This document shows, one piece after another, positions 7,501 through 32,000 of a DNA stretch of 32,000 bases. The stretch is from Thauera aromatica K172 (lineage in GTDB: Bacteria; Pseudomonadota; Gammaproteobacteria; Burkholderiales; Rhodocyclaceae), in NCBI RefSeq assembly GCF_003030465.1, contig NZ_CP028339.1, positions 2,952,041 to 2,984,040 on the forward strand, written 5' to 3'. The notes under the pieces are model-generated. The model worked only from the letters and a program-made list of their open reading frames with translations, was not told where the DNA came from and made no database searches. A program made the position numbers and the translations under genes. Position 1 is the first letter of the stretch. Every line of letters starts with the position of its first letter.

Positions 7501-7888
7501 GCGAAAACACCCGCGCCACGCCGTAGGCGTGCAGTTCGCGGATTTCGTCCGGCACGATCACCCCGCCGCCGCCGCCGAACACCTGGATATGGCCACCGCC
7601 GCGGGTCCTGAGCAGATCGATCAGGTACTTGAAGAACTCGACGTGCCCGCCCTGGTAGCTGCTCACCGCGATGCCGTGCACGTCCTCCTGCAGCGCCGCG
7701 CTCACGACCTCCTCGACCGAGCGGTTGTGGCCGAGGTGGATGACCTCCACCCCGCTCGCCTGCAGCAGCCGGCGCACGATGTTGATCGCGGCATCATGGC
7801 CGTCGAACAGCGCGGTCGCGGTGATGAAGCGGACCTTGTTCCTGGGCGTGTACGCCGCAGGCCTGCTTGTGGCGCTCGGATCGGTCAT
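4562..7888 (-). CDS. icmF: Fused isobutyryl-CoA mutase (B12-binding domain + MeaI-type G-protein + mutase barrel)
   Basis: 1108 aa. The N-terminus is a B12-binding domain ([15 protein letters not shown]...[12 protein letters not shown]). The centre has a P-loop [17 protein letters not shown] with an ArgK/MeaB-like region. The C-terminus is a methylmalonyl-CoA-mutase-like substrate barrel ([23 protein letters not shown]...RTNRRF). GGAGG lies 9 nt upstream of the ATG. Length and domain order are typical of IcmF. Confidence 0.9.
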
Positions 7889-10248: not shown

Positions 10249-10270
10249 CACCCTTCCTCCTGAACTGGTC

Positions 10271-10312
10271 CTTTTACGCGCAGCCACCACGGGTCGTATT
10301 GACGTGCGTCAA
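10271..10312 (-). promoter_or_regulatory. Candidate FNR/CRP-family class II promoter for the activator gene (box TTGACGTGCGTCAA + TAAAAG -10)
   Basis: Perfect palindrome TTGAC-N4-GTCAA at 10299-10312. Exactly 22 nt downstream on the minus strand is TAAAAG (10276-10271). That geometry places the box at -41.5. The predicted TSS is near 10264, 16 nt before the ATG. Confidence 0.4.
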
Positions 10313-12514: not shown

Positions 12515-12527
12515 GGGAGTGACTGAC

Positions 12528-13652
12528 ATGGGAAGTATCGTTTCCACCGTAGCCCTGTCCGCGGCCACCGCCGACAGCACTTCGCCGAAGGTCTGCCCGT
12601 TCGAGGCCTGCGGCAAGGACTCGGTCCCGCTGGTGGGCGGCAAGTGCGCGTCCCTGGGCGAACTGATCAACGCCGGCGTACGGGTGCCGCCGGGCTTTGC
12701 CCTGACCACCAGCGGCTATGCCCAGTTCATGCGTGAAGCCGGCATCCAGGCGGACATCGGCGCGCTGCTCGAAGGCCTCGACCACCAGGACATGGACAAG
12801 CTCGAGGAAGCATCGAGGGCGATCCGCGAAATGATCGAATCGCGCCCGATGCCGATCGAGCTCGAAGACCTGATCGCCGAGGCCTACCGCAAGCTGTCGG
12901 TCCGCTGCTATCTGCCCGCGGCGCCGGTGGCGGTGCGTTCGAGCGCGACCGCCGAGGACCTGCCCGGTGCGAGCTTTGCCGGCCAGCAGGATACCTACCT
13001 GTGGATCCGCGGCGTCGATGACCTCATCCACCACGTCCGGCGCTGCATCTCCAGCCTCTACACCGGCCGGGCGATCGCCTACCGGATGAAGATGGGCTTC
13101 CCGCACGAGCAGGTCGCGATCAGCGTCGGCGTCCAGATGATGGCGAACGCCTACACCGCGGGGGTGATGTTCACGATCCATCCGGGCACCGGCGACCGCT
13201 CGGTGATCGTCATCGATTCGAATTTCGGCTTCGGTGAATCCGTGGTGTCGGGCGAAGTCACGCCGGACAACTTCGTCGTCAACAAGGTCACCCTCGACAT
13301 CATCGAGCGCACGATTTCGACGAAGGAGCTGTGCCACACCGTCGATCTGAAGACCCAGAAATCAGTCGCACTTCCGGTCCCTGCCGAGCGCCAGAACATC
13401 CAGTCGATTACCGATGACGAAATCAGCGAACTCGCCTGGGCCGCCAAGAAGATCGAAAAGCATTACGGCCGCCCGATGGACATCGAATGGGCGATCGACA
13501 AGAACCTGCCCGCGGACGGAAACATTTTCATCCTCCAGGCCCGGCCCGAAACGATCTGGAGCAACCGCCAGAAAGCCAGCGCGACGACCGGCAGCACGTC
13601 GGCGATGGATTACATCGTATCGAGCCTGATCACGGGCAAGCGGCTCGGCTAG
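12528..13652 (+). CDS. ppsB: Phenylphosphate synthase subunit B (ATP-binding, PEP synthase N-terminal-like)
   Basis: It has a PPDK_N/ATP-grasp-like domain (VPLVGGKCASLGEL, VRSSATAEDLPGASFAGQQDTYL, IDSNFGFGESVVSGEVTPD, MDIEWAID). I prefer the ATG at 12528 (GAGGGAG 8 nt upstream) to the GTG at 12519. Confidence 0.9.
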   Translation: MGSIVSTVALSAATADSTSPKVCPFEACGKDSVPLVGGKCASLGELINAGVRVPPGFALTTSGYAQFMREAGIQADIGALLEGLDHQDMDKLEEASRAIREMIESRPMPIELEDLIAEAYRKLSVRCYLPAAPVAVRSSATAEDLPGASFAGQQDTYLWIRGVDDLIHHVRRCISSLYTGRAIAYRMKMGFPHEQVAISVGVQMMANAYTAGVMFTIHPGTGDRSVIVIDSNFGFGESVVSGEVTPDNFVVNKVTLDIIERTISTKELCHTVDLKTQKSVALPVPAERQNIQSITDDEISELAWAAKKIEKHYGRPMDIEWAIDKNLPADGNIFILQARPETIWSNRQKASATTGSTSAMDYIVSSLITGKRLG

Positions 13653-13664
13653 GAGGACGAAAAA

Positions 13665-14336
13665 ATGATCGTACGCAACTGGATGCAGACCAATCCGATC
13701 GTGCTCACCGGGGACACCTTGCTGTCCGAAGCGAAGCGGATCTTTTCCGAAGCCAATATCCACGCATTACCGGTCGTCGATGACGGCCGCCTGCGCGGAC
13801 TCATCACCCGCGCCGGCTGCCTGCGGGCCGCGCATGCCGCGCTGCGGACCCAGGACACCGACGAGCTCAACTACTTCTCGAACCGGGTCAAGGTCAAGGA
13901 CATCATGGTCCGCAACCCGGCCACCATCGATGCCGACGACACGATGGAACACTGCCTGCAGGTCGGCCAGGAACACGGCGTCGGCCAATTGCCGGTGATG
14001 GACAAAGGCAATGTCGTCGGAATCATTTCGGCAATCGAAATGTTCTCGCTGGCGGCGCATTTCCTTGGTGCCTGGGAAAAGCGCAGCGGCGTCACCCTGG
14101 CCCCGATCGATCTCAAGCAGGGAACCATGGGCCGCATCATCGACACCGTCGAAGCCGCCGGCGCCGAGGTGCACGCGATCTACCCGATCTCGGCCCATGA
14201 CAGGGAGTCCGCCTCGGCCAGGCGGGAGCGGAAAGTGATCATCCGCTTCCACGCCGCGAACGTCGCGGCAGTCATCGAGGCGCTCGCCCACGCCGGCTAC
14301 GAAGTCATCGAGGCCGTTCAAGCCGCAGCGCATTGA
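13665..14336 (+). CDS. ppsC: Phenylphosphate synthase subunit C (CBS-pair stimulating protein)
   Basis: 223 aa with two CBS motifs (VRNWMQTNPIVL...LPVVDDGRLRGLIT; VKDIMVRNPATID...LPVMDKGNVVGIIS) and an ACT-like tail. It is the third gene of the pps block. AGGAGGA lies upstream. Confidence 0.85.
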   Translation: MIVRNWMQTNPIVLTGDTLLSEAKRIFSEANIHALPVVDDGRLRGLITRAGCLRAAHAALRTQDTDELNYFSNRVKVKDIMVRNPATIDADDTMEHCLQVGQEHGVGQLPVMDKGNVVGIISAIEMFSLAAHFLGAWEKRSGVTLAPIDLKQGTMGRIIDTVEAAGAEVHAIYPISAHDRESASARRERKVIIRFHAANVAAVIEALAHAGYEVIEAVQAAAH

Positions 14337-14398
14337 GCCCAGCCCCACCCATCCTGCCTCACCCCGGTTTCACCCATTTCTGCCAAGGAGCGACACCC

Positions 14399-15817
14399 AT
14401 GGACCTGCGCTACTTCATCAACCAGTGTGCCGAAGCCCACGAACTGAAGAGAATCACCACCGAGGTCGATTGGAATCTGGAGATTTCCCATGTTTCCAAG
14501 CTGACCGAAGAGAAAAAAGGCCCGGCGCTGCTGTTCGAAAGCATCAAGGGCTACGACACGCCGGTGTTCACCGGGGCCTTCGCGACCACCAAGCGCCTCG
14601 CCGTCATGCTCGGCCTGCCGCACAACCTGTCGCTGTGCGAATCCGCCCAGCAATGGATGAAGAAAACGATCACCTCCGAAGGGCTGATCAAGGCGAAGGA
14701 AGTGAAGGACGGCCCGGTGCTGGAAAACGTGCTCAGCGGCGACAAGGTCGATCTCAACATGTTCCCGGTGCCGAAGTTCTTCCCCCTCGACGGCGGGCGC
14801 TACATCGGCACGATGGTATCGGTGGTGCTGCGTGATCCGGAGACGGGCGAGGTCAACCTCGGCACCTACCGCATGCAGATGCTCGACGACAAGCGCTGCG
14901 GGGTGCAGATCCTGCCCGGGAAGCGCGGCGAACGGATCATGAAAAAGTACGCCAAGATGGGCAAAAAGATGCCCGCCGCGGCGATCATCGGCTGCGATCC
15001 GCTGATCTTCATGTCCGGCACGCTGATGCACAAGGGCGCCAGCGACTTCGACATTACCGGCACCGTGCGCGGCCAGCAGGCCGAGTTCCTGATGGCGCCG
15101 CTGACCGGGCTGCCGGTGCCGGCCGGGGCCGAGATCGTGCTCGAAGGCGAGATCGATCCGAACGCCTTCCTGCCCGAAGGCCCGTTCGCCGAATACACCG
15201 GCTACTACACCGACGAACTGCACAAGCCGATCCCGAAACCGGTGCTCGAAGTGCAGCAGATCCTGCACCGCAACAGCCCGATCCTGTGGGCCACCGGCCA
15301 GGGCCGCCCGGTGACCGACGTCCATATGCTGCTCGCCTTCACCCGGACCGCGACCTTGTGGACCGAGCTCGAGCAGATGCGCATTCCCGGCATCCAGTCG
15401 GTGTGCGTGATGCCGGAATCGACCGGGCGCTTCTGGTCGGTGGTGTCGGTCAAGCAGGCCTACCCGGGGCACTCGCGCCAGGTGGCCGACGCGGTGATCG
15501 CCAGCAACACCGGCTCGTACGGCATGAAGGGTGTGATCACGGTCGATGAGGACATCCAGGCCGACGATCTGCAGCGCGTGTTCTGGGCGCTGTCGTGCCG
15601 CTACGACCCGGCGCGCGGCACCGAGCTGATCAAGCGCGGCCGCTCGACGCCGCTCGATCCGGCGCTCGACCCGAACGGCGACAAGCTCACCACGTCGCGG
15701 ATCCTGATGGACGCCTGCATCCCCTACGAGTGGAAGCAGAAGCCGGTCGAAGCGCGCATGGACGAAGAGATGCTGGCGAAGATCCGCGCCCGCTGGCACG
15801 AGTACGGCATCGACTGA
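14399..15817 (+). CDS. ppcB: Phenylphosphate carboxylase UbiD-like subunit (beta, 472 aa)
   Basis: It carries UbiD-family motifs GEVNLGTYRMQ (14855-14872 covers N..R) and EGPFAEYTGYY. The start is taken at the ATG at 14399 (AAGGAG 7 nt upstream), not the track start at 14333. Confidence 0.9.
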   Translation: MDLRYFINQCAEAHELKRITTEVDWNLEISHVSKLTEEKKGPALLFESIKGYDTPVFTGAFATTKRLAVMLGLPHNLSLCESAQQWMKKTITSEGLIKAKEVKDGPVLENVLSGDKVDLNMFPVPKFFPLDGGRYIGTMVSVVLRDPETGEVNLGTYRMQMLDDKRCGVQILPGKRGERIMKKYAKMGKKMPAAAIIGCDPLIFMSGTLMHKGASDFDITGTVRGQQAEFLMAPLTGLPVPAGAEIVLEGEIDPNAFLPEGPFAEYTGYYTDELHKPIPKPVLEVQQILHRNSPILWATGQGRPVTDVHMLLAFTRTATLWTELEQMRIPGIQSVCVMPESTGRFWSVVSVKQAYPGHSRQVADAVIASNTGSYGMKGVITVDEDIQADDLQRVFWALSCRYDPARGTELIKRGRSTPLDPALDPNGDKLTTSRILMDACIPYEWKQKPVEARMDEEMLAKIRARWHEYGID

Positions 15818-15881: not shown

Positions 15882-16391
15882 ATGGAACAGGCGAAGAACA
15901 TCAAGCTGGTGATCCTCGACGTCGATGGCGTGATGACCGACGGGCGCATCGTGATCAATGACGAAGGCATCGAGTCGCGCAACTTCGACATCAAGGACGG
16001 CATGGGCGTGATCGTGCTGCAACTGTGCGGCGTCGAGGTCGCGATCATCACCTCGAAGAAATCCGGCGCGGTGCGCCATCGCGCCGAGGAGCTGAAGATC
16101 AAGCGCTTCCACGAGGGCATCAAGAAGAAGACCGAGCCCTACGCGCAGATGCTCGAGGAGATGAACATCTCCGATGCCGAAGTCTGCTACGTCGGCGACG
16201 ACCTCGTCGATCTGTCGATGATGAAGCGCGTCGGCCTGGCCGTGGCGGTCGGTGACGCCGTGGCCGACGTCAAGGAAGTGGCCGCTTATGTGACGACTGC
16301 GCGCGGCGGGCACGGCGCGGTGCGCGAAGTCGCGGAGCTGATCCTGAAAGCGCAGGGCAAGTGGGACGCGATGCTCTCGAAGATCCATTGA
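15882..16391 (+). CDS. ppcD: Phenylphosphate carboxylase 18-kDa HAD-phosphatase subunit (KdsC-like; delta as I recall the nomenclature)
   Basis: 169 aa. HAD motif I is LVILDVDGVMTDG. It also has ITSKKS and YVGDDLVDL motifs like KDO-8-P phosphatase. It lies between the two UbiD-like subunit genes. The gamma/delta naming is from memory and could be swapped. Confidence 0.85.
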   Translation: MEQAKNIKLVILDVDGVMTDGRIVINDEGIESRNFDIKDGMGVIVLQLCGVEVAIITSKKSGAVRHRAEELKIKRFHEGIKKKTEPYAQMLEEMNISDAEVCYVGDDLVDLSMMKRVGLAVAVGDAVADVKEVAAYVTTARGGHGAVREVAELILKAQGKWDAMLSKIH

Positions 16392-16427
16392 TTCATCCGC
16401 ATGACATCCATCGACAAGGAGATCGAC

Positions 16428-17885
16428 ATGGGAAAGATTTCAGCACCGAAAAACAACCGTGAATTCATCGAGGCATGCGTCAAGTCCGGCGATGCGGTCC
16501 GGATCAGACAGGAAGTGGACTGGGACAACGAGGCCGGCGCCATCGTGCGCCGCGCCTGCGAGCTCGCCGAAGCCGCCCCGTTCATGGAGAACATCAAGGA
16601 CTACCCCGGCTTCAGCTACTTCGGCGCGCCGCTGTCGACCTACCGCCGCATGGCGATCTCGCTCGGCATGGACCCGGCATCGACCTTGCCGCAGATCGGC
16701 GCCGAGTACCTCAAACGTACCAACAGCGAGCCCGTGGCGCCGGTGATCGTCGACAAACGGGACGCCCCGTGCAAGGAGAACATCCTGCTCGGCGCCGACG
16801 TCGATCTGACCAAGCTGCCGGTACCGCTGGTCCATGACGGCGACGGCGGCCGCTACGTCGGCACCTGGCACGCGGTGATCACCAAGCACCCGGTGCGCGG
16901 CGACGTGAACTGGGGCATGTACCGGCAGATGATGTGGGACGGCCGCACGATGTCGGGCGCCGTGTTCCCGTTCTCGGATCTGGGCAAGGCGCTCACCGAG
17001 TACTACCTGCCGCGCGGCGAGGGCTGCCCGTTCGCGACCGCGATCGGCCTGTCGCCGCTCGCCGCGATGGCCGCCTGCGCGCCCTCTCCGATCCCCGAGC
17101 CCGAGCTCACCGGCATGCTCGCCGGCGAGCCGGTGCGCCTGGTGAAGTGCGAGACCAACGACCTCGAAGTCCCGGCCGATGCCGAGATCATCATCGAGGG
17201 CGTGATCCTGCCCGACTACAAGGTCGAGGAAGGCCCGTTCGGCGAATACACCGGCTACCGCACCAGCCCGCGCGACTTCCGCGTCACCTTCCGCGTCGAT
17301 GCGATCACCTATCGCAACAACGCGACGATGACGATCTCGAACATGGGCGTGCCGCAGGACGAGGGCCAGCTGCTGCGCTCGTTCTCGCTCGGGCTCGAAC
17401 TCGAGAAGCTGCTGAAGAGCCAGGGTATCCCGGTGACCGGCGTGTACATGCACCCGCGCTCGACCCACCACATGATGATCGTCGGCGTGAAGCCGACCTA
17501 CGCCGGCATCGCGATGCAGATCGCGCAGCTCGCGTTCGGCTCCAAGCTCGGGCCGTGGTTCCACATGGTGATGGTGGTCGACGACCAGACCGACATCTTC
17601 AACTGGGACGAGGTCTATCACGCGTTCTGCACGCGCTGCAATCCGGAGCGCGGCATCCACGTGTTCAAGAACACCACCGGCACCGCCCTCTATCCGCACG
17701 CCACCCCGCACGACCGCAAGTACTCGATCGGCTCGCAGGTGCTGTTCGATTGCCTGTGGCCGGTCGATTGGGACAAGACCAACGACGTGCCGACGCTCGT
17801 CAGCTTCAAGAACGTCTATCCGAAGGACATCCAGGAAAAGGTCACGAACAACTGGACCGACTACGGCTTCAAGCCGGTGAAATAA
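16428..17885 (+). CDS. ppcA: Phenylphosphate carboxylase UbiD-like subunit (alpha, 485 aa)
   Basis: It carries UbiD-family motifs GDVNWGMYRQM (N..R at 16908-16925) and EGPFGEYTGYR. I prefer the ATG at 16428 (AAGGAG 7 nt upstream) to the one at 16401. Confidence 0.9.
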   Translation: MGKISAPKNNREFIEACVKSGDAVRIRQEVDWDNEAGAIVRRACELAEAAPFMENIKDYPGFSYFGAPLSTYRRMAISLGMDPASTLPQIGAEYLKRTNSEPVAPVIVDKRDAPCKENILLGADVDLTKLPVPLVHDGDGGRYVGTWHAVITKHPVRGDVNWGMYRQMMWDGRTMSGAVFPFSDLGKALTEYYLPRGEGCPFATAIGLSPLAAMAACAPSPIPEPELTGMLAGEPVRLVKCETNDLEVPADAEIIIEGVILPDYKVEEGPFGEYTGYRTSPRDFRVTFRVDAITYRNNATMTISNMGVPQDEGQLLRSFSLGLELEKLLKSQGIPVTGVYMHPRSTHHMMIVGVKPTYAGIAMQIAQLAFGSKLGPWFHMVMVVDDQTDIFNWDEVYHAFCTRCNPERGIHVFKNTTGTALYPHATPHDRKYSIGSQVLFDCLWPVDWDKTNDVPTLVSFKNVYPKDIQEKVTNNWTDYGFKPVK

Positions 17886-17896
17886 GGAGACGCAAC

Positions 17897-18151
17897 ATGA
17901 ACCAGTGGGAAGTATTCGTCATGGACCCGGCGGAACTGCCGGAAGGCAAGCAGCTCGAGCTGAGCGTGCGCACCCTCAACCCCGGGCTGAAGAAATACAC
18001 CTATCAGCGCGTCAGGGCTGAAGTGTCACCCGCGCTCGACAAGTTCCCCGACCAGCTCCAGGTCCGGCTCGGGCGCGGCCAGCTGAGCCCCCAGCGCTTC
18101 TCGATCCGCATCATCGAGACCGTCCAGCGCATGCCGGCCAAGTACCTGTAG
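17897..18151 (+). CDS. ppcC: Phenylphosphate carboxylase 10-kDa subunit (gamma as I recall)
   Basis: Only the last 84 aa of the 16934..18151 track ORF are used: MNQWEVFVMDPAELPEGK...RMPAKYL. AAGGAG lies 8 nt upstream, 11 nt after the ppcA stop. Size and position match the small subunit. It has no recognisable domain. Confidence 0.75.
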   Translation: MNQWEVFVMDPAELPEGKQLELSVRTLNPGLKKYTYQRVRAEVSPALDKFPDQLQVRLGRGQLSPQRFSIRIIETVQRMPAKYL

Positions 18152-18162
18152 TGACGGCGGAC

Positions 18163-18192
18163 GGCGCCGGGCAACTGCCTCTGCCCGGCGCC
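18163..18192 (+). terminator. Strong hairpin between the ppc genes and the ubiD/ubiX sub-cluster (possible partial terminator/attenuator)
   Basis: Perfect 11-bp stem GGCGCCGGGCA/TGCCCGGCGCC with an 8-nt loop, 12 nt after the ppcC stop. A T-tract (CCTTTTG) occurs only ~17 nt further on, so it is not a canonical intrinsic terminator. Confidence 0.35.
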
Positions 18193-18271
18193 GGAAGCGT
18201 GACCGCCGCCTTTTGTCCGCCCGCGGCAGCGCCGCGGCCGGCACTCAACCCGCTAAAGCATTGGGGGAACG

Positions 18272-19615
18272 ATGGCCTATTCCGATCTGCGTGCCTTCCT
18301 CGCCGACCTCGGTGACGACTTGCTGCGCATCCGCGATGAGTTCGACCCGCGCTTCGAAGCGGCAGCCTTGCTCCGCACCCTCCCCGCCGAAGGGCCGGCC
18401 GTGCTGTTCGAGAACGTCCGCGCCTACCCCGGCGCACGCATCGCCGGCAACCTGATCGCCAGCCGCAGCCGCCTGGCGCGCGCACTCGGCACCACCGCCG
18501 ACGCGCTGCCGCGGACCTGGCTGGAGCGCAAGGAGCACGGCATTGCACCGATCCAGGCGCGGGACGCGGCCCCGGTCAAGGAAGTGATCCACCGCCATCC
18601 GGACGATCTGCTGTCGCTGCTGCCGATCCTGACCCACCACGAAAAGGATGCGGCCCCCTTCATCACCACCGGCGTGGTGTTGTGCACCGACCCCGAGACC
18701 GGCCGGCGCGGCATGGGCATCCACCGCATGATGGTCAAGGGCGGGCGCCGGCTCGGCATCCTGCTCGCCAATCCGCCGATTCCGCATTTCCTCGCCAAGG
18801 CCGAAGCGGCCGGCAAGCCGCTCGATGTCGCCATCGCGCTCGGTCTCGAACCCGCCACCCTGCTGTCGTCGGTGGTCAAGGTCGGCCCGCGGGTGCCCGA
18901 CAAGATGGCCGCTGCCGGCGCCCTGCGTGGCGAACCGGTCGAGCTGGTGCGCGCCGAAACGGTGGATGTGGACATCCCGGCGCGCGCCGAAATCGTCATC
19001 GAAGGCCGGATTCTGCCGGGCGTGCGCGAACTCGAGGGCCCGTTCGGGGAGAACACCGGGCACTATTTTTCCAACGTCAGCCCGGTCATCGAGATCAGCG
19101 CCGTCACCCATCGCGACAACTTCATCTACCCGGGCCTGTGCCCATGGTCGCCCGAGGTCGATGCGCTGCTGTCGCTGGCGGCCGGTGCCGAATTGCTCGG
19201 CCAGTTGCAGGGGCTGATCGACGGCGTCGTCGATCTGGAGATGGCCGGCGGCACCAGCGGCTTTTCCGTGGTTGTCGCAGTCCATCGGACCACTGCGGCC
19301 GACGTCAGACGGCTGGTCATGCTCGCGCTCAATCTCGACCGCCGCCTGAAGACGATCACCGTCGTCGACGACGACGTCGACATCCGCGACCCGCGCGAAG
19401 TCGCCTGGGCCATGGCTACCCGCTACCAGCCCGCCCGGGACACGGTCGTGATCCACGGCTGCGAAGCCTATGTCATCGATCCTTCGGCGACCGGGGACGG
19501 CACATCGAAAGTCGGGTTCATCGCCACCCGTGCCAGCGGCGCGGACTCGGACCGCATCACCCTGCCGCCGGCAGCGCTCGCGAAGGCGCGCGCCATCATC
19601 GCCAGACTGCATTGA
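18272..19615 (+). CDS. Third UbiD-family (de)carboxylase paralogue, 447 aa, divergent
   Basis: It has EGPFGENTGHY and the overall UbiD layout. The N-x-G-x-Y-R motif reads GRRGMGIHRMM (18701-18733). It is shorter than PpcA/PpcB. Confidence 0.85.
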   Translation: MAYSDLRAFLADLGDDLLRIRDEFDPRFEAAALLRTLPAEGPAVLFENVRAYPGARIAGNLIASRSRLARALGTTADALPRTWLERKEHGIAPIQARDAAPVKEVIHRHPDDLLSLLPILTHHEKDAAPFITTGVVLCTDPETGRRGMGIHRMMVKGGRRLGILLANPPIPHFLAKAEAAGKPLDVAIALGLEPATLLSSVVKVGPRVPDKMAAAGALRGEPVELVRAETVDVDIPARAEIVIEGRILPGVRELEGPFGENTGHYFSNVSPVIEISAVTHRDNFIYPGLCPWSPEVDALLSLAAGAELLGQLQGLIDGVVDLEMAGGTSGFSVVVAVHRTTAADVRRLVMLALNLDRRLKTITVVDDDVDIRDPREVAWAMATRYQPARDTVVIHGCEAYVIDPSATGDGTSKVGFIATRASGADSDRITLPPAALAKARAIIARLH

Positions 19616-19629
19616 ACAGGGAGCAAGCC

Positions 19630-20214
19630 ATGAGAATCGTCGTCGGAATGTCCGGTGCCAGCGGTGCGATCTACGGCATCCGGATCCTCGAGGCACTACA
19701 GCGCATCGGTGTCGAAACCGACCTGGTGATGTCGGATTCGGCCAAGCGGACCATCGCATACGAAACGGACTATTCGATCAGCGACTTGAAGGGACTCGCG
19801 ACCTGCGTCCATGACATCAATGATGTCGGGGCGTCGATCGCCAGCGGCTCGTTCCGCCATGCCGGCATGATCATCGCGCCCTGTTCGATCAAGACCCTGT
19901 CCGCAGTCGCCAACTCGTTCAACACGAATCTGTTGATCCGCGCCGCCGACGTCGCGTTGAAGGAGCGGCGCAAGCTCGTGCTGATGCTGCGCGAGACGCC
20001 GCTGCACCTGGGCCACCTGCGCCTGATGACCCAGGCCACGGAGAACGGCGCGGTTCTCCTCCCTCCCCTGCCCGCGTTCTACCACCGCCCCAAGACGCTC
20101 GACGACATCATCAACCAGTCGGTGACGAAAGTGCTCGACCAGTTCGATCTCGACGTCGATCTCTTCGGGCGGTGGACGGGCAACGAAGAACGCGAACTGG
20201 CGAAATCCCGATAG
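19630..20214 (+). CDS. ubiX: Flavin prenyltransferase UbiX/Pad1 family
   Basis: Only the last 194 aa of the 18682..20214 track ORF are used: MRIVVGMSGASGAIYGIRILE..., MIIAPCSIKTLSAVANS, LMLRETPLHLGHLRLM. These are hallmark UbiX motifs. GGGAG lies upstream, 14 nt after the ubiD-like stop. Confidence 0.9.
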   Translation: MRIVVGMSGASGAIYGIRILEALQRIGVETDLVMSDSAKRTIAYETDYSISDLKGLATCVHDINDVGASIASGSFRHAGMIIAPCSIKTLSAVANSFNTNLLIRAADVALKERRKLVLMLRETPLHLGHLRLMTQATENGAVLLPPLPAFYHRPKTLDDIINQSVTKVLDQFDLDVDLFGRWTGNEERELAKSR

Positions 20215-20224
20215 GACGCTTCCG

Positions 20225-20656
20225 ATGCCACCGATCGCCCTTCCCCTGTCACTCGAAGGCGTCGTCTGCACGGGACTCGGTGCAGGCGCGCAGTTCACCA
20301 CCCTCGACTGGGTCGTCGATGAATGCCGGGAAAAGCTCGGCTTCATCCCCTGGCCCGGCACCTTCAACGTGAGGACGCAGGGCGCGCTTGCGGGCGTGGA
20401 CCGCACCCGCCTCCTGCGCTCGGGATACAGCATCCGCATCCGGCCGGCGCCCGGCTACTGTGCCGCGGAATGCCTCGTGGTCAACATCGCGGGGCGGATC
20501 TCCGGCGCGGTGCTATTCCCAGAGGTGCCCGGCTACCCGGACGGCCAGCTCGAAATCATCGCTCCGGTGCCGGTACGAAGAACCCTCGGCCTCAATGACG
20601 GCGACCGGGTCAACCTCTCCATCGGCATCAGCACCTCCCTTTTCTGCCGGGCCTGA
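20225..20656 (+). CDS. Archaeal-type (CTP-dependent, MJ0056/DUF120-like) riboflavin kinase homologue
   Basis: 143 aa. EGVVCTGLGAGAQF, KLGFIPWPGTFNV and ISGAVLFPEVPGYPDGQLEIIAPVPVRRTLGLNDGDRVNLSI align by eye with my recollection of MJ0056 ([69 protein letters not shown]). Confidence 0.75.
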   Translation: MPPIALPLSLEGVVCTGLGAGAQFTTLDWVVDECREKLGFIPWPGTFNVRTQGALAGVDRTRLLRSGYSIRIRPAPGYCAAECLVVNIAGRISGAVLFPEVPGYPDGQLEIIAPVPVRRTLGLNDGDRVNLSIGISTSLFCRA

Positions 20657-20694
20657 ACAGTCGGGAGCCGGCAAACGTCAGCAAGGAGATTCAC

Positions 20695-21243
20695 ATGGCA
20701 CCGAAGTTCTGCCCGCAATGCGGCACCGCCCTGGTCCTGGCGACGATCCATGGGCGCGAACGTGAAACCTGTCCGGCCTGTGGCGAAACCTTTTTCCACA
20801 AGCCCGCGCCCGTCGTGCTGGCGGTGATCGAGCACGCCGGGCAACTCGTGCTGATCCGCCGCAAGCTCGATCCGCTCGCCGGCTACTGGGCACCGCCGGG
20901 CGGCTACGTCGAACGCGGCGAATCGCTCGAGGAGGCGGTCGTACGCGAGGCGCGCGAGGAAAGCGGACTCGAGGTCGCCGTCGATGAACTGATCGGCGTG
21001 TATTCGCAGGCCGACGTGCGCGCGGTGATCCTCGCCTACCGCGCGCACTCGATCGGCGGCGAACCGGTCGCCGGCGACGACGCCGGCGAGATCTGCCTCG
21101 TCGCCCCGGGCCAGCTGCCGGTGCAGCGCCCGCCGCAGAGCGGCATACCGATCGAACACTGGTTTTTCAGCGTAGTGGAGGAAGTCACCGATCCATGGAA
21201 GTGGGGGCGCCGCAACAGCGCCAAGAAAATGATGAGGAGATAG
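20695..21243 (+). CDS. Nudix hydrolase with N-terminal zinc ribbon (MutT-like)
   Basis: 182 aa with a CPQCG...CPACG ribbon. The Nudix box is a perfect GX5EX7REUXEEXGU match: GYVERGESLEEAVVREAREESGL (20902-20970). AAGGAG lies upstream. Confidence 0.88.
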   Translation: MAPKFCPQCGTALVLATIHGRERETCPACGETFFHKPAPVVLAVIEHAGQLVLIRRKLDPLAGYWAPPGGYVERGESLEEAVVREAREESGLEVAVDELIGVYSQADVRAVILAYRAHSIGGEPVAGDDAGEICLVAPGQLPVQRPPQSGIPIEHWFFSVVEEVTDPWKWGRRNSAKKMMRR

Positions 21244-21246
21244 AAC

Positions 21247-21720
21247 GTGAATATCATCGATACACCCCCGATCACCCCCGAGATGCCGCCAAACCTGCTG
21301 GATTACCTGCGCGGCGGCGGACCTGCCCTGCTGCTGACGACGGGCACCGACGGATACCCGAGCTCGGCCTACACATGGGCAATCGCCCTCGACGGCACGC
21401 ACCTGCGCTTCGGCGCGGACGAGGGCGGCTCCGGCTACGCCAACCTGGAGCGCACCGGACAGGCCGCGATACACATCATCGGCCCGAATGACCTCGCCTT
21501 CCTCGTCAAGGGAACGGCACGTCTTCTCAAGGCGCACATCGACACTGCCTCGCCCGCGCGCATGGCGCTGTACGAACTCGAAGTGATCGGAGCCCGCGAT
21601 CAGTCCTTCCCCGGCGTCACGGCCAAGCCCTTCACCTATGAATGGCCGGCGGCGCAGCGCGCGGCGCTGACGAAGATGGAACAGTCGGTGTTTACCGAAA
21701 TGCGCGAATTCGCCCAGTGA
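21247..21720 (+). CDS. PNPOx-like FMN-binding split-barrel protein
   Basis: 157 aa with a GTG start 3 nt after the Nudix stop and GAGGAG 7 nt upstream. PALLLTTGTDGYPSSAYTWAIALDGTHLRFGADEGGSGYANLERTGQAAIHIIG is typical of the pyridoxamine-5'-phosphate-oxidase-related fold. Confidence 0.7.
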   Translation: MNIIDTPPITPEMPPNLLDYLRGGGPALLLTTGTDGYPSSAYTWAIALDGTHLRFGADEGGSGYANLERTGQAAIHIIGPNDLAFLVKGTARLLKAHIDTASPARMALYELEVIGARDQSFPGVTAKPFTYEWPAAQRAALTKMEQSVFTEMREFAQ

Positions 21721-21771: not shown

Positions 21772-23073
21772 ATGTCGTATTTCGACCAGACCACCGAAAC
21801 CCTTCCCCGCGAACGCCTGGCCGCCCTGCAGTTCGACAAGCTGCAGGCGATGATGAACGAGCTGTGGGGCAGGAACCGCTTCTACACCAACAAGTGGAAA
21901 GCCGCCGGCGTCGAACCGGGTGACATCCGGACGCTCGACGATCTCGCCCGCCTGCCGCTGACGACCAAGTCGGAGCTGATGGAAGATCAGGCCACGAACG
22001 GACCGTTCGGTTCGAACCTGACCTATCCGCTCGAAGCCTATGTCCGCCTGCACCAGACTTCCGGCACCACCGGCGTGCCGCTGAAGGTTTTCGACACCGC
22101 CGAATCATGGGACTGGTTCGGACGCTGCTGGGCGCATGTCCTGGCCGGCGCCGGCGTGACCGCTTCCGACCGGGTCTTCCTGGCCTTTTCATTCGGACCT
22201 TTCATCGGCTTCTGGTCGGCGCTGGAAGGCGCGCGCAAGCTCGGCGCCGTCCTGATTCCCGGCGGCGGGCGCGACTCCCTGCAGCGCCTCGAACTGATGC
22301 GCGACACCGGTGCCAGCGTGCTGTGCTGCACTCCGACGTATGCGCTTCGGCTCGCCGAAGTGGCGCGTGAAGTCGGTTTCGACCTGAGCTCGATCCCGAT
22401 GCGCGCCACGGTGCATGCCGGTGAGCCCGGCGCAAGCATTCCCGCAACCAAGCACCGCATCGAGGACGCATGGTCGTCGAAATGCTTCGACCACGCCGGG
22501 GCGTCGGAAATCGGCGCCTACTCCTTCGAGTGCGAACATCAGCCCGGCGGCACCCACCTGATCGAAAGCGAGTTCATCGCCGAGGTCATCGACCCGGCCA
22601 CGGGCAAGGCCGTCCCTCCCGGACAGCGCGGTGAACTGGTAATCACCAACCTCGGGCGCTGGGGCTTTCCGGTGCTGCGCTACCGCACCGGCGACCTGGT
22701 CGAAGTGAATCACGCCCCGTGCGACTGCGGCCGCGGCTTCCTGCGCTTCGAAGGCGGGATTCTCGGCCGTGCCGACGACATGATTACCGTGCGCGGGGTC
22801 AACGTTTACCCCTCCGGCGTCGAGAACATCATCCGCAAGTTCACCGAAGTCGATGAGTTCCGCATCAAGGTCAGCCGCGTGCGCCAGATGGATGAGATGG
22901 ATGTGGAAATCGAGCTGTGCGAAGGCGCCGATCCGGAAGTCGTGCATGCCATCGCCGAAAAGCTGGACACCATGCTCGCCTTCCGCCCGCGCGTCCATCA
23001 CGTCGGGCGCAACGTGCTGCCCCGCTTCGACATGAAGGCGCGGCGCTTCCACGTGAACCGCGAAGCTTCGTAA
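21772..23073 (+). CDS. PaaK-type adenylate-forming ligase (phenylacetate-CoA ligase / coenzyme F390 synthetase family)
   Basis: 433 aa. The N-terminal region (LPRERLAALQFDKLQAMMNELWGRNRFY...LDDLARLPLTTKSEL), the LHQTSGTTGVPLKV adenylation motif and the RTGDL..., ITVRGVNVYPSGVE C-terminal domain are all typical of PaaK. Confidence 0.8.
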   Translation: MSYFDQTTETLPRERLAALQFDKLQAMMNELWGRNRFYTNKWKAAGVEPGDIRTLDDLARLPLTTKSELMEDQATNGPFGSNLTYPLEAYVRLHQTSGTTGVPLKVFDTAESWDWFGRCWAHVLAGAGVTASDRVFLAFSFGPFIGFWSALEGARKLGAVLIPGGGRDSLQRLELMRDTGASVLCCTPTYALRLAEVAREVGFDLSSIPMRATVHAGEPGASIPATKHRIEDAWSSKCFDHAGASEIGAYSFECEHQPGGTHLIESEFIAEVIDPATGKAVPPGQRGELVITNLGRWGFPVLRYRTGDLVEVNHAPCDCGRGFLRFEGGILGRADDMITVRGVNVYPSGVENIIRKFTEVDEFRIKVSRVRQMDEMDVEIELCEGADPEVVHAIAEKLDTMLAFRPRVHHVGRNVLPRFDMKARRFHVNREAS

Positions 23074-23186
23074 CCCCTCCGGGCCATGGCAGGGAGCAGC
23101 CCCCGCATCCCGCCATAGCCCGAACCGCGCGGGGCAAACCACCAAACCAGAACAACGAAACGCACAACGCAGTGAGGAGGAAACAA

Positions 23187-24116
23187 ATGGGGATCAAGCA
23201 GATTGCAGTCGCAGCAATGCTTTCAGGACTCGCTGCCGCAAGCGCCAGCGCAAAGGAAGGCGGCGACCAGTATCCGAACGGAGGCGAAAACTGGCTGGTC
23301 GGCGCAATGCCGCCCCCCGGTGACTACTTCCTGAACTACGCCGGTTATTACGATGGAGAACTGCGCGACGGCAGCGGCGACAAGGTCCCTGGCGCTTCGG
23401 TGACAGCCTGGTTCGACGCGCTGCGCTACGTCAAGGTCACCGACAAGCAGATCCTCGGCGGAAACTGGGCGGTGCACATGATCGTGCCCATCGTGCACCA
23501 GAAGCTGAGTCTCGGCGGCGGCAGCAAGACCGTGACCGGTCTGGGCGACATCGTGTTTTCCCCTCTGGCCATCGCCTGGCATGCCGGCAACTGGCACTGG
23601 GTCGCCGTGCTCGACATCTATGCGCCGACCGGGAAGTACAAGTCGGGCGAACCGCGCAAGAGCATCGGTGCCAATTACTGGAGCATCGAGCCGGTCTTCG
23701 CCGTCACTTGGCTTTCGCCGCGGGGCTGGGAAGTGACGGGCAAGTTCATGTACAACTTCAAGGCGGAGAACAAGGATTTCCGGCCCGCCCCCGGTGCGCC
23801 GAAGATGGATTACGACTCCGGCGACGAATTCCACATGGACTTTCTCGTCGGCAAGCGCTTCGGCCCCTGGGGCGTCGGGGTCTCGGGCTATTACGTGAAA
23901 CAGACCACGGACGACAAGCTGGACGGAAAGTCGATTTCATCGGCTCTCGGGCCGTGGTCGACCGGACGCAGGGGAGAAGCTTTCGCTGCCGGGCCGAGCG
24001 TCAGTTACACGACCAAGACAGGCACCCAGTTCATTGCGCAATGGCAGCACGAAATCGAAGCCGACAATCGCTTCCGTGGCGACAAGGCGTGGTTCAAACT
24101 GGTGACTTCGTTCTGA
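23187..24116 (+). CDS. Outer-membrane beta-barrel channel, phenol-degradation MetA-pathway family (PF13557-like)
   Basis: Only the last 309 aa of the 22917..24116 track ORF are used. The signal peptide is [22 protein letters not shown]|KEGG and GAGGAGG lies 7 nt upstream. It is Gly/Tyr/Trp-rich with an alternating beta-strand pattern, and the C-terminus ends in Phe (WFKLVTSF). Confidence 0.75.
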
Positions 24117-25849: not shown

Positions 25850-27259
25850 TCAGGCCGCTGCGAGCCGGTCCTCGCGGATCGCTTCGTACTCGTCCTGCCA
25901 GAACCACTTTTCCTCGCCGAAGGCGGGAACGAGCTGGTCGAGCCAGGTCGCCTTGTCGTCGAACTTGGCGAAGAACGGGCGCTGCACCCAGTCGGGGTTG
26001 CGCCCCTGGATGAAGCGCAGGACGAAGACTTTTTCGCCGGCGATCTCGGCAACGCCCTGGATCTCGACCTTGCCCGGACTCGCGCTCATGCTCGGGCCGC
26101 GCGCGGTGCGGGCCAGGCCCGAGACCTGCTGCATGGCCTCGCGGTAGATTTCCCAGGCACGCACCAGCGGCACTTCGAAGTAGTTGCGCGCACCGGTGTC
26201 GCGCTCGACGAACATGTAGTAGGGGACCAGGCCGAGCTTCACTTCCAGCTTCCACAGCTTCGCCCATACCGCGGGGTCGTCGTTGATGTGCGCGACCAGC
26301 GGCCCCTGGGCACGGATCACCGCGCCGGTGCCGCGGATGCGGCGAATCGCGGCCTGCGCGGCCTCGGTGTCGAGTTCCTTCCAGTGGTTGTAGTGCGCCA
26401 TCAGGGCGACGTGCTTGCCGGCCTCGACGAGCTGGGTCAGCAGGCGGATCAGGTCGTCGGCATCGTCGGCGCCGAGGAAGCGGTGCGGCCAGAAGGTGAG
26501 CGCCTTGGAGCCGATGCGGATGGTCTGGACGTGGTCGAACTCGGGCTGCAGCAGGGGCTCAAGAAAGTCGCGCAGGTGGCGCGTCTTCATCACCATCGGG
26601 TCACCACCGGTGACCAGCAGGTCGGTGACTTCGGGGTGGCGGCGCAGGTAATTGTGCAGCTCGATGGCTTCGGACGAGCAGATGCGCAGCTCCTTGTCAC
26701 CGACGAACTGCGCCCAGCGGAAGCAGAAGCTGCAGTAACTGTGGCAAGTCTGCCCCTGGGTGGGGAAGAACAACACCGTCTCGCGGTACTTGTGCTGCAT
26801 GCCTTCGAGACGCTTGCCGTGCTCGTCGCGCGGCATGTTCATTTCCATCTGGTCGGCCGGGTGCGGGTTCAGCGCATGGCGCACTTCACCCACCGCCCGC
26901 TCCAGTTCGGCCTTGTCGGCGCCGCCGCGGATCAGGCCGGCGATGCGCTCGTAGTGCTCGGGCGCAAGCATCCCGCGCTGCGGGAAAGTGAGCTGGAAGA
27001 TCGGGTCGTCGGGAACCTTGCTCCAGTCGATCAGTTCGTCGATGACGTACTGGTTGACGCGGAAGGGCAGCACCGAAGACACCACTTTCATCTCGAAGCG
27101 CTGCTCGGACGACAGCCTGGCCAGCGGGGCAATGCGGTCGAGGTCGCGCTGGGTATACACCTTGAACGGGACGGGATCGAAGAAATCGACACCGGCGGGG
27201 GGGATCTGCGCGAGGGGCTGGATGTGATGGGGCTGGAGAGCCTGCACTTGAGCGCTCAT
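25850..27259 (-). CDS. KamA-family radical SAM protein (lysine-2,3-aminomutase-like)
   Basis: 469 aa from the ATG at 27259 (GGAGGA 6 nt upstream). The track extension to 27574 is Arg/Pro-rich junk. It has a CX3CX2C cluster CHSYCSFCFRW, a LAM-like N-terminus (LPFRVNQYVIDELIDW...DDPIFQLTFPQ) and LLVTGGDPMV. Confidence 0.8.
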   Translation of the reverse strand: MSAQVQALQPHHIQPLAQIPPAGVDFFDPVPFKVYTQRDLDRIAPLARLSSEQRFEMKVVSSVLPFRVNQYVIDELIDWSKVPDDPIFQLTFPQRGMLAPEHYERIAGLIRGGADKAELERAVGEVRHALNPHPADQMEMNMPRDEHGKRLEGMQHKYRETVLFFPTQGQTCHSYCSFCFRWAQFVGDKELRICSSEAIELHNYLRRHPEVTDLLVTGGDPMVMKTRHLRDFLEPLLQPEFDHVQTIRIGSKALTFWPHRFLGADDADDLIRLLTQLVEAGKHVALMAHYNHWKELDTEAAQAAIRRIRGTGAVIRAQGPLVAHINDDPAVWAKLWKLEVKLGLVPYYMFVERDTGARNYFEVPLVRAWEIYREAMQQVSGLARTARGPSMSASPGKVEIQGVAEIAGEKVFVLRFIQGRNPDWVQRPFFAKFDDKATWLDQLVPAFGEEKWFWQDEYEAIREDRLAAA

Positions 27260-27469
27260 GGGACGTCCTCCTGGTGTGGTCTTGTGGGTTTTGCAGGGGC
27301 GCGCGGTTACGGCGCCCGCAAGCCTGCGTCCAGACACGGAAAAACCACGTCTGGCAGTCGGCAGGGAAAACGGAGCAGACCCGGAATGATCGTGAAAACG
27401 GCTGGATGCCAGCCTCGGGCCCTGTTTATTCATGCTCCCGCGAGTGCGGCAAGCAGATTGCTGATTTGA

Positions 27470-27498
27470 ATCATATTCCACGAAATACTTTTGTGCAA
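27470..27498 (-). promoter_or_regulatory. Candidate sigma70 promoter TTGCAC-N17-TATGAT for the KamA-like gene
   Basis: The minus strand has -35 TTGCAC (27498-27493), a 17-nt spacer and -10 TATGAT (27475-27470). This predicts a ~200-nt leader. Confidence 0.45.
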
Positions 27499-27610
27499 AT
27501 ATGACACTCCGTGCGGAGTGAAGTTCCACGGCGCCGGGCGGCCTCCGAAACAGCCCGGCCGCCGCGGCCGGCATTCGATCGAGCGGGAGCGCCCTGCCCC
27601 ACGCGCATCG

Positions 27611-29701: not shown

Positions 29702-29723
29702 TCGATTTAATCCTCCCCGCCGA

Positions 29724-31256
<1,533 letters not shown>

Positions 31257-31311
31257 GGAGAGTCTCCTGTCGGATCGTTCCGCCCGGCCCTGTGCGGCGG
31301 GGCGGCCTGTT

Positions 31312-32000
31312 TCAAGCCTGGACGTAGCCGAGCAGGCGCAGCGCGGCGGCCGAAGGCGTGGTCGTGCCCTCCTCCACCGCGCGGGCGAACCCGGGCAATG
31401 CGTGCTTCACCTGCGGATGGGTGCGGAAGCGGCTGCGCAGCCCCGCATCGATCAGTTCCCACATCCAGGCCAGGGCCTGGTGGCGGCGTCTGGCGTCGAA
31501 CTCGCCGGAGGCGGTGAGCGTCCGGCGGTAGTCGCTCACCGCCTGCCAGAATTCGGCGATGCCTTCCTTCTTCAGCGCCGACAGCGTCAGCACCGGCACC
31601 GTCCAGTTCGGGCTGGCCGGGCGCAGCATGTGGAGCGCGGTCTTGATCTGGGCCTTCGCCCGCATCGCCGCCGCCGGATCGAGGTCGGCCTTGTTGATGA
31701 CGATCAGGTCGGCAAGCTCCATGATCCCTTTCTTGATCGCCTGCAGCTCATCGCCGGCGTTGGGCAGCTGGAGCAGGCAGAAGAGGTCGGTCATGCCCGC
31801 CACCGCAGTCTCGCTCTGGCCGACGCCGACGGTCTCGACGATGAGCACGTCGAAACCGGCGGCCTCGCACACCAGCATCGTCTCGCGCGTTTTCTCTGCC
31901 ACCCCGCCGAGCGAACCGGCCGACGGGCTGGGACGGATGAACGCGGCCGGATTCTGCGAGAGCCGTTCCATGCGCGTCTTGTCGCCGAGGATCGAGCCGC
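31312..32000 (-). CDS. meaB: MeaB/ArgK methylmalonyl-CoA-mutase-associated GTPase; partial, N-terminus beyond the right window edge
   Basis: The frame stays open upstream of the track Met: ...[14 protein letters not shown]..., then [13 protein letters not shown] and INKADL (NKxD). The P-loop part lies outside the window. Confidence 0.85.

Follow-up and report, generated by a model that had tools for sequence, protein, structure and literature searches.

Which task is served by the five genes that follow the phenylphosphate carboxylase genes of Thauera aromatica K172? They lie in a window of 32,000 nucleotides (nt), the whole stretch of DNA that was analyzed (contig NZ_CP028339.1, positions 2,952,041 to 2,984,040, forward strand). 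They encode a UbiD paralogue, a UbiX flavin prenyltransferase, a protein of the cytidine triphosphate (CTP)-dependent riboflavin kinase type (RibK-like), a zinc-ribbon Nudix hydrolase, and a split-barrel protein similar to PNPOx (PNPOx-like). UbiX makes reduced prenylated flavin mononucleotide (prFMNH2) from reduced flavin mononucleotide (FMNH2) and dimethylallyl phosphate (DMAP), and it strictly needs FMN in the reduced form. In our view it is somewhat more likely than not that the five genes, together with a YhbP-like gene elsewhere in the window, form an accessory set that supplies and activates prFMN for PpcAB, the UbiD-type alpha and beta subunits of phenylphosphate carboxylase, when the phenol operon is induced. 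The client in this reading, PpcAB, is a very highly expressed, O2-sensitive UbiD-type enzyme. The first two of the five genes are known in the literature as PpcX and PpcY, and PpcY is open reading frame 8 (ORF8) of T. aromatica (PMC5946492).

In the anaerobic breakdown of phenol, aniline, and phthalates, and probably of benzene and naphthalene, UbiD-type (de)carboxylases have a central part. There is also demand for them as CO2-fixing biocatalysts, and many of them are not obtainable in active form. It is accepted that UbiD activation can involve accessory proteins, e.g., LpdD (PMC10865409), and the oxidation of prFMNH2 without O2 was stated as an open question in field papers of 2024 and 2025 (PMC10865409, PMC13040415). 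The locus and its relatives offer a short list of conserved candidates, taken from organisms that have to mature prFMN anoxically: a PhdC-like protein, a YhbP-like protein, a dedicated riboflavin kinase, a Nudix hydrolase, and a clade of UbiD proteins without the metal site. If the set helps recalcitrant UbiD enzymes, anaerobic carboxylases would be opened to study and use. If the genes are dispensable, the locus would be a usual catabolic operon whose cofactor genes are redundant.

Conservation of the gene set with UbiX

The initial annotation had described five genes on one strand, with gaps of 14, 10, 38, and 3 nt, directly behind the carboxylase genes. The ORF list and the raw sequence gave exactly these gaps from ppcX to the PNPOx-like gene (Table 1), and Pfam and NCBIfam scans confirmed the five family assignments. 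To follow the genes through other genomes, a profile of the PNPOx-like family was scanned against one genome per species, and the resulting 80 loci were compared with all proteins of the window by tblastn. Neighbors were counted in the 61 loci with at least 2.5 kb of upstream sequence, and UbiX was counted within 2.5 kb. UbiX was near the PNPOx-like gene in 51 of these loci, RibK-like in 47, Nudix in 46, and PpcX in 44, and all four were present together in 39. About 50 loci from Rhodocyclales and other Betaproteobacteria have the full order ppsABC-ppcBCAD-ppcX-ubiX-ribK-like-nudix-PNPOx-like(-paaK-like).

Other loci are rearranged. Deltaproteobacterium BM512 (L062) has ppsA-ppsB-PNPOx-like-RibK-like ... 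ppcBCAD-ppcX-ubiX, a Kiloniellaceae metagenome-assembled genome (L019, alphaproteobacterial) has ppsB-PNPOx-like-RibK-like ... ppcBCAD, and Anaerolineales L083 has ppsB-Nudix-UbiX-PNPOx-like. A second betaproteobacterial cluster type (L095-L097) reads ppsAB-UbiD(522 amino acids, aa)-UPF0261-ppsC-UbiX-Nudix-PNPOx-like, with PpcX absent. A third type (L181/L182) reads PNPOx2-GntR-UbiD(490)-HAD-ppsAB-(Nudix)-UbiX-PNPOx-like-His_Phos-ligase, where PNPOx2 is a second PNPOx gene. The Nudix and PNPOx-like genes of L095 overlap by 4 nt, and so do UbiX, the PNPOx-like gene, and the histidine-phosphatase-family gene (His_Phos_1) of L182. These overlaps suggest that genes of the set are translationally coupled.

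The genes were also found apart from phenol clusters. A RibK-like profile scan of metagenomes showed that the RibK-like gene adjoins UbiX in low-GC lineages (L132, L153, L165, L168, L169, and L178). Further loci have no pps or ppc genes in the available sequence. Among these, L123 and L156 have RibK-like next to UbiX, L128 has an Hcr-like Mo-hydroxylase, a coenzyme A (CoA) ligase, a UbiD of the K-type described below, UbiX, and RibK-like (Pfam), and L004/L005 have RibK-like, UbiX (62% identical), FMN_dh, a YhbP-like PNPOx, and a PRK06733-like PNPOx. The grouping is not due to chance: about 50 betaproteobacterial genomes share the order, and in other phyla the linkage survives rearrangement. 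From the rearranged loci and the loci without pps it follows that the genes are co-conserved with UbiX/UbiD well outside the lineage of Thauera, and that the link tracks UbiX, not phenylphosphate synthase. Phylogenetic profiling, the check proposed in the initial annotation, thus found the families co-conserved with UbiX/UbiD in several phyla, contrary to one refuting outcome named there, a lack of co-conservation beyond this lineage.

Two of these arrangements call for a further remark. In L095-L097 a single 522-aa UbiD and the UPF0261 protein stand in place of PpcABCD. In L004 (7643-10797, Logan SRR29324611) the flavin cluster lies downstream of CoxD/CoxE/XdhC-type Mo-hydroxylase maturation genes, and the 11-kb contig has no UbiD and no pps or ppc gene.

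The PNPOx-like protein and PhdC

The PNPOx-like family is tight (116 clusters, 46-96% identity), and its hosts are Rhodocyclales, Deferrisomatales, Desulfobacterales, other Deltaproteobacteria, and Anaerolineales. The match of the Thauera protein to PNPOx_N is marginal (29.0 bits vs. a gathering score of 28.1). An AlphaFold2 model with the family alignment as input had a predicted local distance difference test score (pLDDT) of 93. When this model was searched against the PDB with Foldseek, ranks 2-8 and 10 were taken by entries of PhdC (9nk0-4, 9o5m, and 9srg), with E of 3e-7 to 3e-6 and template modeling (TM) scores of 0.61-0.66 over the full length. The PhdC entries outranked every flavin reductase, and other split-barrel proteins had TMq of at most 0.58. 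As modeled, the protein has the split-barrel and C-terminal-helix fold of PhdC. In a search of the family profile against the PDB, PhdC was the second-best match, with E of 0.023-0.14 over only 52 residues.

The PhdC entries were released from December 2025 to February 2026 under the name 'prenylated-FMN maturase'. With O2 or ferricyanide as oxidant, but not with NAD+, PhdC of Mycolicibacterium fortuitum turns the prFMN radical into the active iminium form (Whittall et al. 2025, PMC13040415). Its catalysis has been ascribed to Glu47 together with an ExW motif (Glu136-x-Trp138) that is strictly conserved in the loop before the C-terminal helix, it belongs structurally among HpaC-like short flavin reductases, and its distant homolog YclD also activates Escherichia coli UbiD (PMC13040415). 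In the PNPOx-like family, the sequence YEWP (131-134, with E132-W133) is invariant or near-invariant and forms the loop just before the C-terminal helix (135-154). This loop is topologically in the same place as the ExW motif, but the spacing differs, and the comparison was one of sequence and predicted topology. In the column equivalent to Glu47, which is not invariant, most members have Asp. On the basis of the model, we propose that the PNPOx-like protein is a prFMN oxidative maturase or a prFMN-binding helper.

The operons are parallel as well. PhdA, PhdB, and PhdC are a UbiD decarboxylase, a UbiX, and a small split-barrel flavin protein. The model of the Thauera protein matches PhdC over the full length, and the Thauera protein has a conserved Glu-Trp before its C-terminal helix. 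There are also differences. The Thauera motif is YEW, not ExW. PhdC comes from aerobic Actinomycetota and uses O2 as oxidant, whereas hosts of the Thauera type are denitrifiers and strict anaerobes, and by BLAST, PhdC-like sequences were reported from Actinomycetota only (PMC13040415). The Phd operon has no genes for RibK-like, Nudix, YhbP-like, or K-type UbiD proteins, whereas the Thauera set has all four.

A second PNPOx-like gene

The YhbP-like gene overlaps the gene of a XylR-type sigma54 regulator by 4 nt, and its product scored 64 bits against the YhbP family, below the cut-off of 176. Homologs with 56-58% identity head the phenol clusters of L181/L182 beside a GntR regulator, and homologs with 37-50% identity adjoin RibK-like, PNPOx-like, or UbiX genes in L118, L142, L004/5, and L006; the homologs thus recur in other phyla. 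A search of the PDB with its sequence gave no match to PhdC. By its gene context, it is probably the sixth member of the flavin set; the five genes listed at first hold, and this conserved companion had been missed. The set thus seems to include two distinct split-barrel flavoproteins, of which one could serve UbiX by reducing FMN, and the oxidation of prFMN could be the task of the other.

UbiX and the supply of FMN and DMAP

PpcY scored 255.5 bits against NF004685 (cut-off 188) and 245 bits against TIGR00421 (cut-off 108.9), and its orthologues, with 53-93% identity, adjoin other genes of the set in many loci. On these scores, PpcY is a bona fide member of the flavin prenyltransferase family.

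The RibK-like protein matches PF01982 (CTP-dep_RFKase) with 95.6 bits (gathering score 25, E 2.7e-27) and aligns with the archaeal CTP-dependent riboflavin kinase MJ0056 (2p3m, E 2.6e-8). The motifs GLGxG, PxPGTxN, and EIIAP, with which the archaeal kinase binds nucleotide and riboflavin, are kept across 21 diverse homologs, with P42, T46, N48, P99, and E110 invariant. Archaeal RibK (MJ0056, 2p3m/2vbs) thus has the same domain, glycine-rich loop, PxPGTxN, and EIIAP as the Thauera protein. The latter, in contrast, belongs to a bacterial UbiX-linked clade and is far below the equivalog cut-off (52.2 bits against NF040694 ribK_Meth, cut-off 168). In a neighbor-joining tree, the UbiX/PNPOx-linked sequences clustered apart from context-free, presumably ordinary, RibK. 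In the table of nearest neighbors, with linked sequences as POS and context-free ones as NEG, POS-POS was 70, POS-NEG 3, NEG-POS 4, and NEG-NEG 15. The host presumably has RibF already, and we propose that the RibK-like protein would be a dedicated source of FMN. A word-indexed search had found an entry from T. aromatica with 100% identity to the RibK-like protein and almost no such genes beyond Thauera, as if the gene were lineage-specific; this was refuted by tblastn, which gave orthologues of 47-56% identity across the loci.

In Anaerolineales H5_CFX7 (L084, 10435-11490), a RibK-like::HAD hydrolase fusion of 351 aa directly follows the PNPOx-like gene and adjoins a luciferase-like (FMN-dependent) monooxygenase gene. 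The fusion is reminiscent of the riboflavin kinase/FMN hydrolase fusion of plants and, by this analogy, fits flavin metabolism. About 4 kb downstream of the phenol cluster of Aromatoleum aromaticum (L091) is a gene for a GTP cyclohydrolase II of the RibA type.

The Nudix protein matches PF00293 (E 6.6e-17) and the N-terminal Zn_ribbon_Nudix domain, and its Nudix box GGYVERGESLEEAVVREAREESGL is intact (pattern GX5EX7REUXEEXGU). The nearest named models, all below cut-off, describe nicotinamide adenine dinucleotide (NAD(H)) diphosphatases that share its zinc ribbon. Against the NADH pyrophosphatase NudC it reached 53 bits (cut-off 158), and the NudC motif SQPWPFPxS is absent from its sequence. 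Linkage of the gene to UbiX was seen in the betaproteobacterial clusters, in Anaerolineales L083, and in L181. An anaerobic, benzene-degrading culture of Peptococcaceae has been reported to produce a UbiD-UbiX-Nudix polycistronic transcript (PMC5852087). In E. coli, NudB, NudF, NudI, and NudJ make DMAP for prFMN in vitro (Wang 2018, as cited in PMC12359138). From the gene position and this precedent we propose that the Nudix hydrolase would convert dimethylallyl pyrophosphate (DMAPP) to DMAP; by its sequence, DMAPP, flavin adenine dinucleotide (FAD), and other substrates are all possible. Precursor supply in E. coli (NudB/F/I/J, ThiM, and Fre) likewise has Nudix enzymes as the DMAP source for UbiX. 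These E. coli enzymes are promiscuous housekeeping proteins scattered over the genome, whereas the Thauera protein is of a zinc-ribbon subfamily and adjoins UbiX in a catabolic operon. In Deferrisomatales (L087, 10578-12017), one gene joins a zinc-ribbon Nudix of this kind (35% identity) to a methyltransferase domain. An orphan PNPOx-like gene, following a nitroreductase-family gene, lies about 1.1 kb away.

PpcX and the K-type UbiD clade

PpcX has the three-domain architecture of UbiD and scored 302.9 bits against TIGR00148 (cut-off 244.85). Its closest solved relative is HmfF (6h6x, 283 bits). The initial annotation had called it divergent, and an alignment of 46 orthologues with E. coli UbiD, HmfF, PpcA, and PpcB bore this out. 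In E. coli UbiD, N175 and E241 are the Mn2+ ligands that tether the prFMN phosphate, and the alignment reproduces those numbers. The equivalents in Aspergillus niger Fdc1 are N168 and E233 for the metal and R173, E277, and E282 for catalysis. The position of N175 holds Gly147 in PpcX, with Gly in 44 and Ala in 2 of the 46 orthologues, and that of E241 holds Lys211, with Lys in 46/46. The two canonical ligands are thus replaced in every orthologue, and the substitutions are also found in the low-GC and deltaproteobacterial copies. The catalytic Arg152, Glu255, and Glu260 are kept in 45-46 of the 46. PpcA (alpha), PpcB (beta), HmfF, E. coli UbiD, and other UbiD proteins of the clusters retain Asn and Glu/Asp as metal ligands (in PpcA and PpcB, the equivalents of N175 and of E241, as E or D), and PpcA and PpcB also keep the catalytic R/E/E. 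The alignment was unreliable in the column of the His ligand.

An exhaustive search gave the 150 nearest representatives at 50% identity (P0258-P0407). About 50 of these have Lys with a non-Asn partner (Gly/Ser/Ala), and 43 of those keep R-E/D-E. By these residues, PpcX is a member of a sizeable, previously unremarked K-type UbiD clade. Since the canonical ligands are replaced, the clade probably binds the flavin without the canonical metal bridge. The 2,5-furandicarboxylate decarboxylase HmfF (6h6x/6h6v) and canonical UbiD share with PpcX the three domains, the catalytic Arg, and Glu-x4-Glu. Where Asn and Glu hold Mn2+ at the prFMN phosphate, the PpcX clade has Gly/Ala/Ser and Lys instead. 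The ligand loss is equally compatible with PpcX as a carrier or maturase and with PpcX as a working decarboxylase. Since the catalytic Arg/Glu/Glu is complete, PpcX may be an enzyme rather than a carrier.

Proposed pathway and known systems

In the favored reading, the RibK-like protein would turn riboflavin into FMN, bypassing RibF, which would carry FMN on to FAD, and the Nudix hydrolase would turn DMAPP into DMAP as the four E. coli enzymes do in vitro. FMNH2 would come from one of the PNPOx-like proteins or from a housekeeping reductase, and UbiX would form prFMNH2. The PhdC-like protein would then bind a prFMN species and catalyze or assist its oxidation to the iminium form, with an acceptor encoded outside the module that in a denitrifier would presumably not be O2. 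PpcX, with Lys for the Mn2+-binding Glu, would take and pass on prFMN, or it would be a separate (de)carboxylase sharing the cofactor.

A bolder version would make PpcX, the PhdC-like protein, and the YhbP-like protein an O2-independent machinery for loading and oxidizing prFMN, with PpcX as the carrier. PpcX would bind prFMNH2 metal-free by means of Lys211, its two electrons would reach a cellular acceptor by way of the two split-barrel flavoproteins, and PpcAB, which is sensitive to O2, would finally receive the mature iminium cofactor. We think this version unlikely. If it were true, it would be the route of UbiD activation in strict anaerobes, and the widespread UbiD clade without metal ligands would be maturases or carriers, not decarboxylases.

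Other systems parallel the Thauera set. In LpdB/C/D and VdcBCD/YclD, accessory genes other than UbiX stand by UbiD/UbiX and raise the amount of holo-UbiD (PMC10865409, PMC13040415). The prFMNH2 chaperone LpdD (Gahloth et al. 2024) has a Pba3/4-like fold, unlike any protein of the Thauera set. Every proposed step has a published analogue (PhdC and YclD for the oxidation, LpdD for the chaperone function, and the E. coli Nudix enzymes with Fre for the precursors), and therefore the idea is not categorically new. The initial annotation had presented the roles as uncharted, and this is out of date, since work on PhdC, LpdD, and Nudix-derived DMAP in E. coli appeared from 2018 to 2025. New elements are a PhdC-like family, distinct and widely conserved, whose hosts are denitrifiers and strict anaerobes, its companions (the UbiX-linked RibK, the zinc-ribbon Nudix, and the YhbP-like protein), and the K-type UbiD clade. 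In the open-access literature we found no paper that ties these families, among them the PNPOx- and RibK-like ones, to UbiX/UbiD, and no description of the K-type clade.

Points against the proposed role

Several results weigh against the favored reading. For all proteins of the module it rests on sequence, predicted structure, and gene context. 'O2-independent', a term of the initial annotation, is not supported: the five genes encode no electron acceptor, and PhdC, the only characterized relative, is idle under strict anoxia unless an artificial oxidant is added (PMC13040415). The first rank in the Foldseek search was held by 2q9k, an Exiguobacterium protein of unknown function (TM 0.76). 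This protein belongs to NCBIfam PRK06733, which all 26 scanned members of the PNPOx-like family match weakly, with the Thauera protein below cut-off, and a Bacillus relative of 2q9k (32% identity) adjoins typA- and PhoH-like genes, not UbiX/UbiD. The likeness to PhdC is remote, at about 20% identity and a profile E of 0.023. An action of the PNPOx-like protein on prFMN, as first suggested, nevertheless gains independent support from the high-confidence model, which is closest to PhdC among the characterized split-barrels. For the Nudix protein, no NCBIfam equivalog cut-off was reached and the best solved relative, 3cng, is an uncharacterized protein. Because of this, and because the NudC motif is absent, its substrate could not be inferred from the sequence.

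The distribution of the genes also counts against a fixed kit. Most of the 80 loci are from related Rhodocyclales, and thus there were fewer independent events than the locus counts suggest. Nudix is missing from five betaproteobacterial loci, and RibK-like and PpcX are missing from seven loci. The phenol cluster of A. aromaticum (CP091977.1) has ppcX-ubiX-RibK-like-Nudix and no PNPOx-like gene, and therefore the PNPOx-like gene is not indispensable in cis. In Deferrisomatales, Desulfobacterales, and Burkholderiaceae, members of the PNPOx-like family also stand by themselves or among unrelated genes, away from UbiX. The set is thus modular, and 'self-contained', the term of the initial annotation, was too strong.

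We also considered PRK06733 as the YclD family that lies beside VdcBCD. This was unsupported, as the Bacillus relative of 2q9k, which was not itself scanned against PRK06733, lies away from UbiX/UbiD.

Alternative explanations

PpcX and PpcY might be a self-standing UbiD/UbiX-type enzyme, either a 4-hydroxybenzoate decarboxylase, as has been speculated for the pair (PMC5946492), or a direct phenol carboxylase, with the three small genes, reportedly described earlier as MutT-like or unknown, as unrelated passengers. The retained catalytic residues of PpcX would suit such an enzyme, HmfF is a true decarboxylase, and in L128 the K-type UbiD is the sole UbiD seen, beside the CoA ligase and Hcr-like reductase genes. 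However, every PpcX orthologue is without the two canonical Mn2+ ligands, and the alpha and beta subunits need UbiX anyway. In loci that have no PpcX (L095-97, L083, L182, and L004), the small genes are still found in linkage with UbiX, and therefore they are not passengers. The carboxylase purified by Schuhle and Fuchs in 2004 reportedly had four subunits, and PpcX was not among them. We regard this explanation as improbable. Far less credible still is a role of the PNPOx-like and RibK-like genes in support of phenylphosphate synthase PpsAB instead of prFMN. The order ppsA-ppsB-PNPOx-like(-RibK-like) in delta- and alphaproteobacterial clusters (L062, L019, L011, and L064) would agree with it, but the same genes lie by UbiX without pps in L004, L123, L128, and L156, the fold match of the PNPOx-like protein is to a prFMN maturase, and to our knowledge no flavin requirement of phenylphosphate synthase has been described.

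The module might serve prFMN with the PNPOx-like protein as a flavin reductase that supplies FMNH2, or as a passive carrier, while maturation is autocatalytic in PpcAB or PpcX. UbiX depends strictly on reduced FMN, PhdC itself is grouped with HpaC-like short flavin reductases, one JGI annotation names a member of the PNPOx-like family a flavin reductase, and one of two different PNPOx-like proteins could well be the reductase. Against this stand the rank of PhdC above all flavin reductases in Foldseek and the conserved Glu-Trp in the loop region of the catalytic ExW. No NAD(P)H-binding motif was noticed in the PNPOx-like protein, although none was specifically sought. To us this role is an unlikely one. 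A different function of the Nudix enzyme is possible, though we doubt it: it might cleave FAD to raise FMN, or act on NADH or on derivatives of cytidine diphosphate (CDP) or CTP, in which case DMAP would have another source or this UbiX would take DMAPP directly. The zinc ribbon shared with the nearest named models, the NAD(H) diphosphatases, and the uncharacterized best structures leave room for this. L035, L039, L067, L077, L081, and L182 keep UbiX, RibK-like, and PNPOx-like without Nudix, and some UbiX/Pad1 enzymes accept a pyrophosphate donor, 'dimethylallyl-(pyro)phosphate' (PMC13040415). On the other side, the NudC-specific motif is absent, several E. coli Nudix enzymes make DMAP, and the recurrent place by UbiX fits a supply of the UbiX substrate.

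Gene layout and flanking genes

The features of the locus are listed in Table 1; the four carboxylase subunits scored far above their NCBIfam equivalog cut-offs. Four of the five starts have a purine-rich, Shine-Dalgarno-like motif in front of them (GGGGGA, GGGAG, AAGGAG, and GAGGAG), and the RibK-like start has only a weak AGGA as ribosome-binding motif. The 120-nt spacer between the gamma gene and ppcX (18152-18271) can form a long GC-rich hairpin that has no U-tract and is no better than in shuffled sequence (z -1.6); it may tune the expression of the accessory genes relative to ppcBCAD. A sequence scan of the intergenic spacers gave no promoter-like or terminator-like site. The PaaK-type CoA ligase gene starts 51 nt past the PNPOx-like gene and has the same place in many loci. 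The ligase is the next pathway step, and the boundary of the module thus falls inside the catabolic operon.

Table 1. Genes of the phenol locus of T. aromatica K172 (coordinates in the window)
Feature	Coordinates	Strand	Evidence or remark
YhbP-like PNPOx gene	8036-8503	-	PNPOx_N E 1.2e-9
XylR-type sigma54 regulator, divergent from ppsA	8500-10290	-	
ppsA, ppsB, ppsC	10676-14336	+	5' of carboxylase genes
Phenylphosphate carboxylase beta	14333-15817	+	NCBIfam equivalog TIGR02724, 1134 bits, above cut-off
Phenylphosphate carboxylase delta (HAD)	15882-16391	+	TIGR02726, 380 bits, above cut-off
Phenylphosphate carboxylase alpha	16401-17885	+	TIGR02723, 1183 bits, above cut-off
Phenylphosphate carboxylase gamma	17897-18151	+	TIGR02725, 193 bits, above cut-off
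UbiD paralogue PpcX, 447 aa	18272-19615	+	UbiD_N/UbiD/UbiD_C, TIGR00148
UbiX flavin prenyltransferase PpcY, 194 aa	19630-20214	+	NF004685, TIGR00421
DUF120 / CTP-dependent riboflavin kinase (RibK-like), 143 aa, short, no helix-turn-helix (HTH) domain	20225-20656	+	PF01982
Zinc-ribbon Nudix hydrolase, 182 aa	20695-21243	+	NUDIX, Zn_ribbon_Nudix
PNPOx-like split-barrel protein, 157 aa, GTG start	21247-21720	+	PNPOx_N, marginal
PaaK-type aryl-CoA ligase	21772-23073	+	AMP-binding, AMP-binding_C_2; PaaK models below cut-off

A 573-aa ORF at 25850-27574 (-) had no match in Pfam, and a Phenol_MetA_deg outer-membrane protein is encoded at 22917-24116. In the flanks (4562-7888 and 27710-31971, both on the - strand) are genes for an IcmF-like fused B12 mutase that carries a MeaB domain, for propionyl-CoA carboxylase (alpha and beta subunits), and for MeaB.

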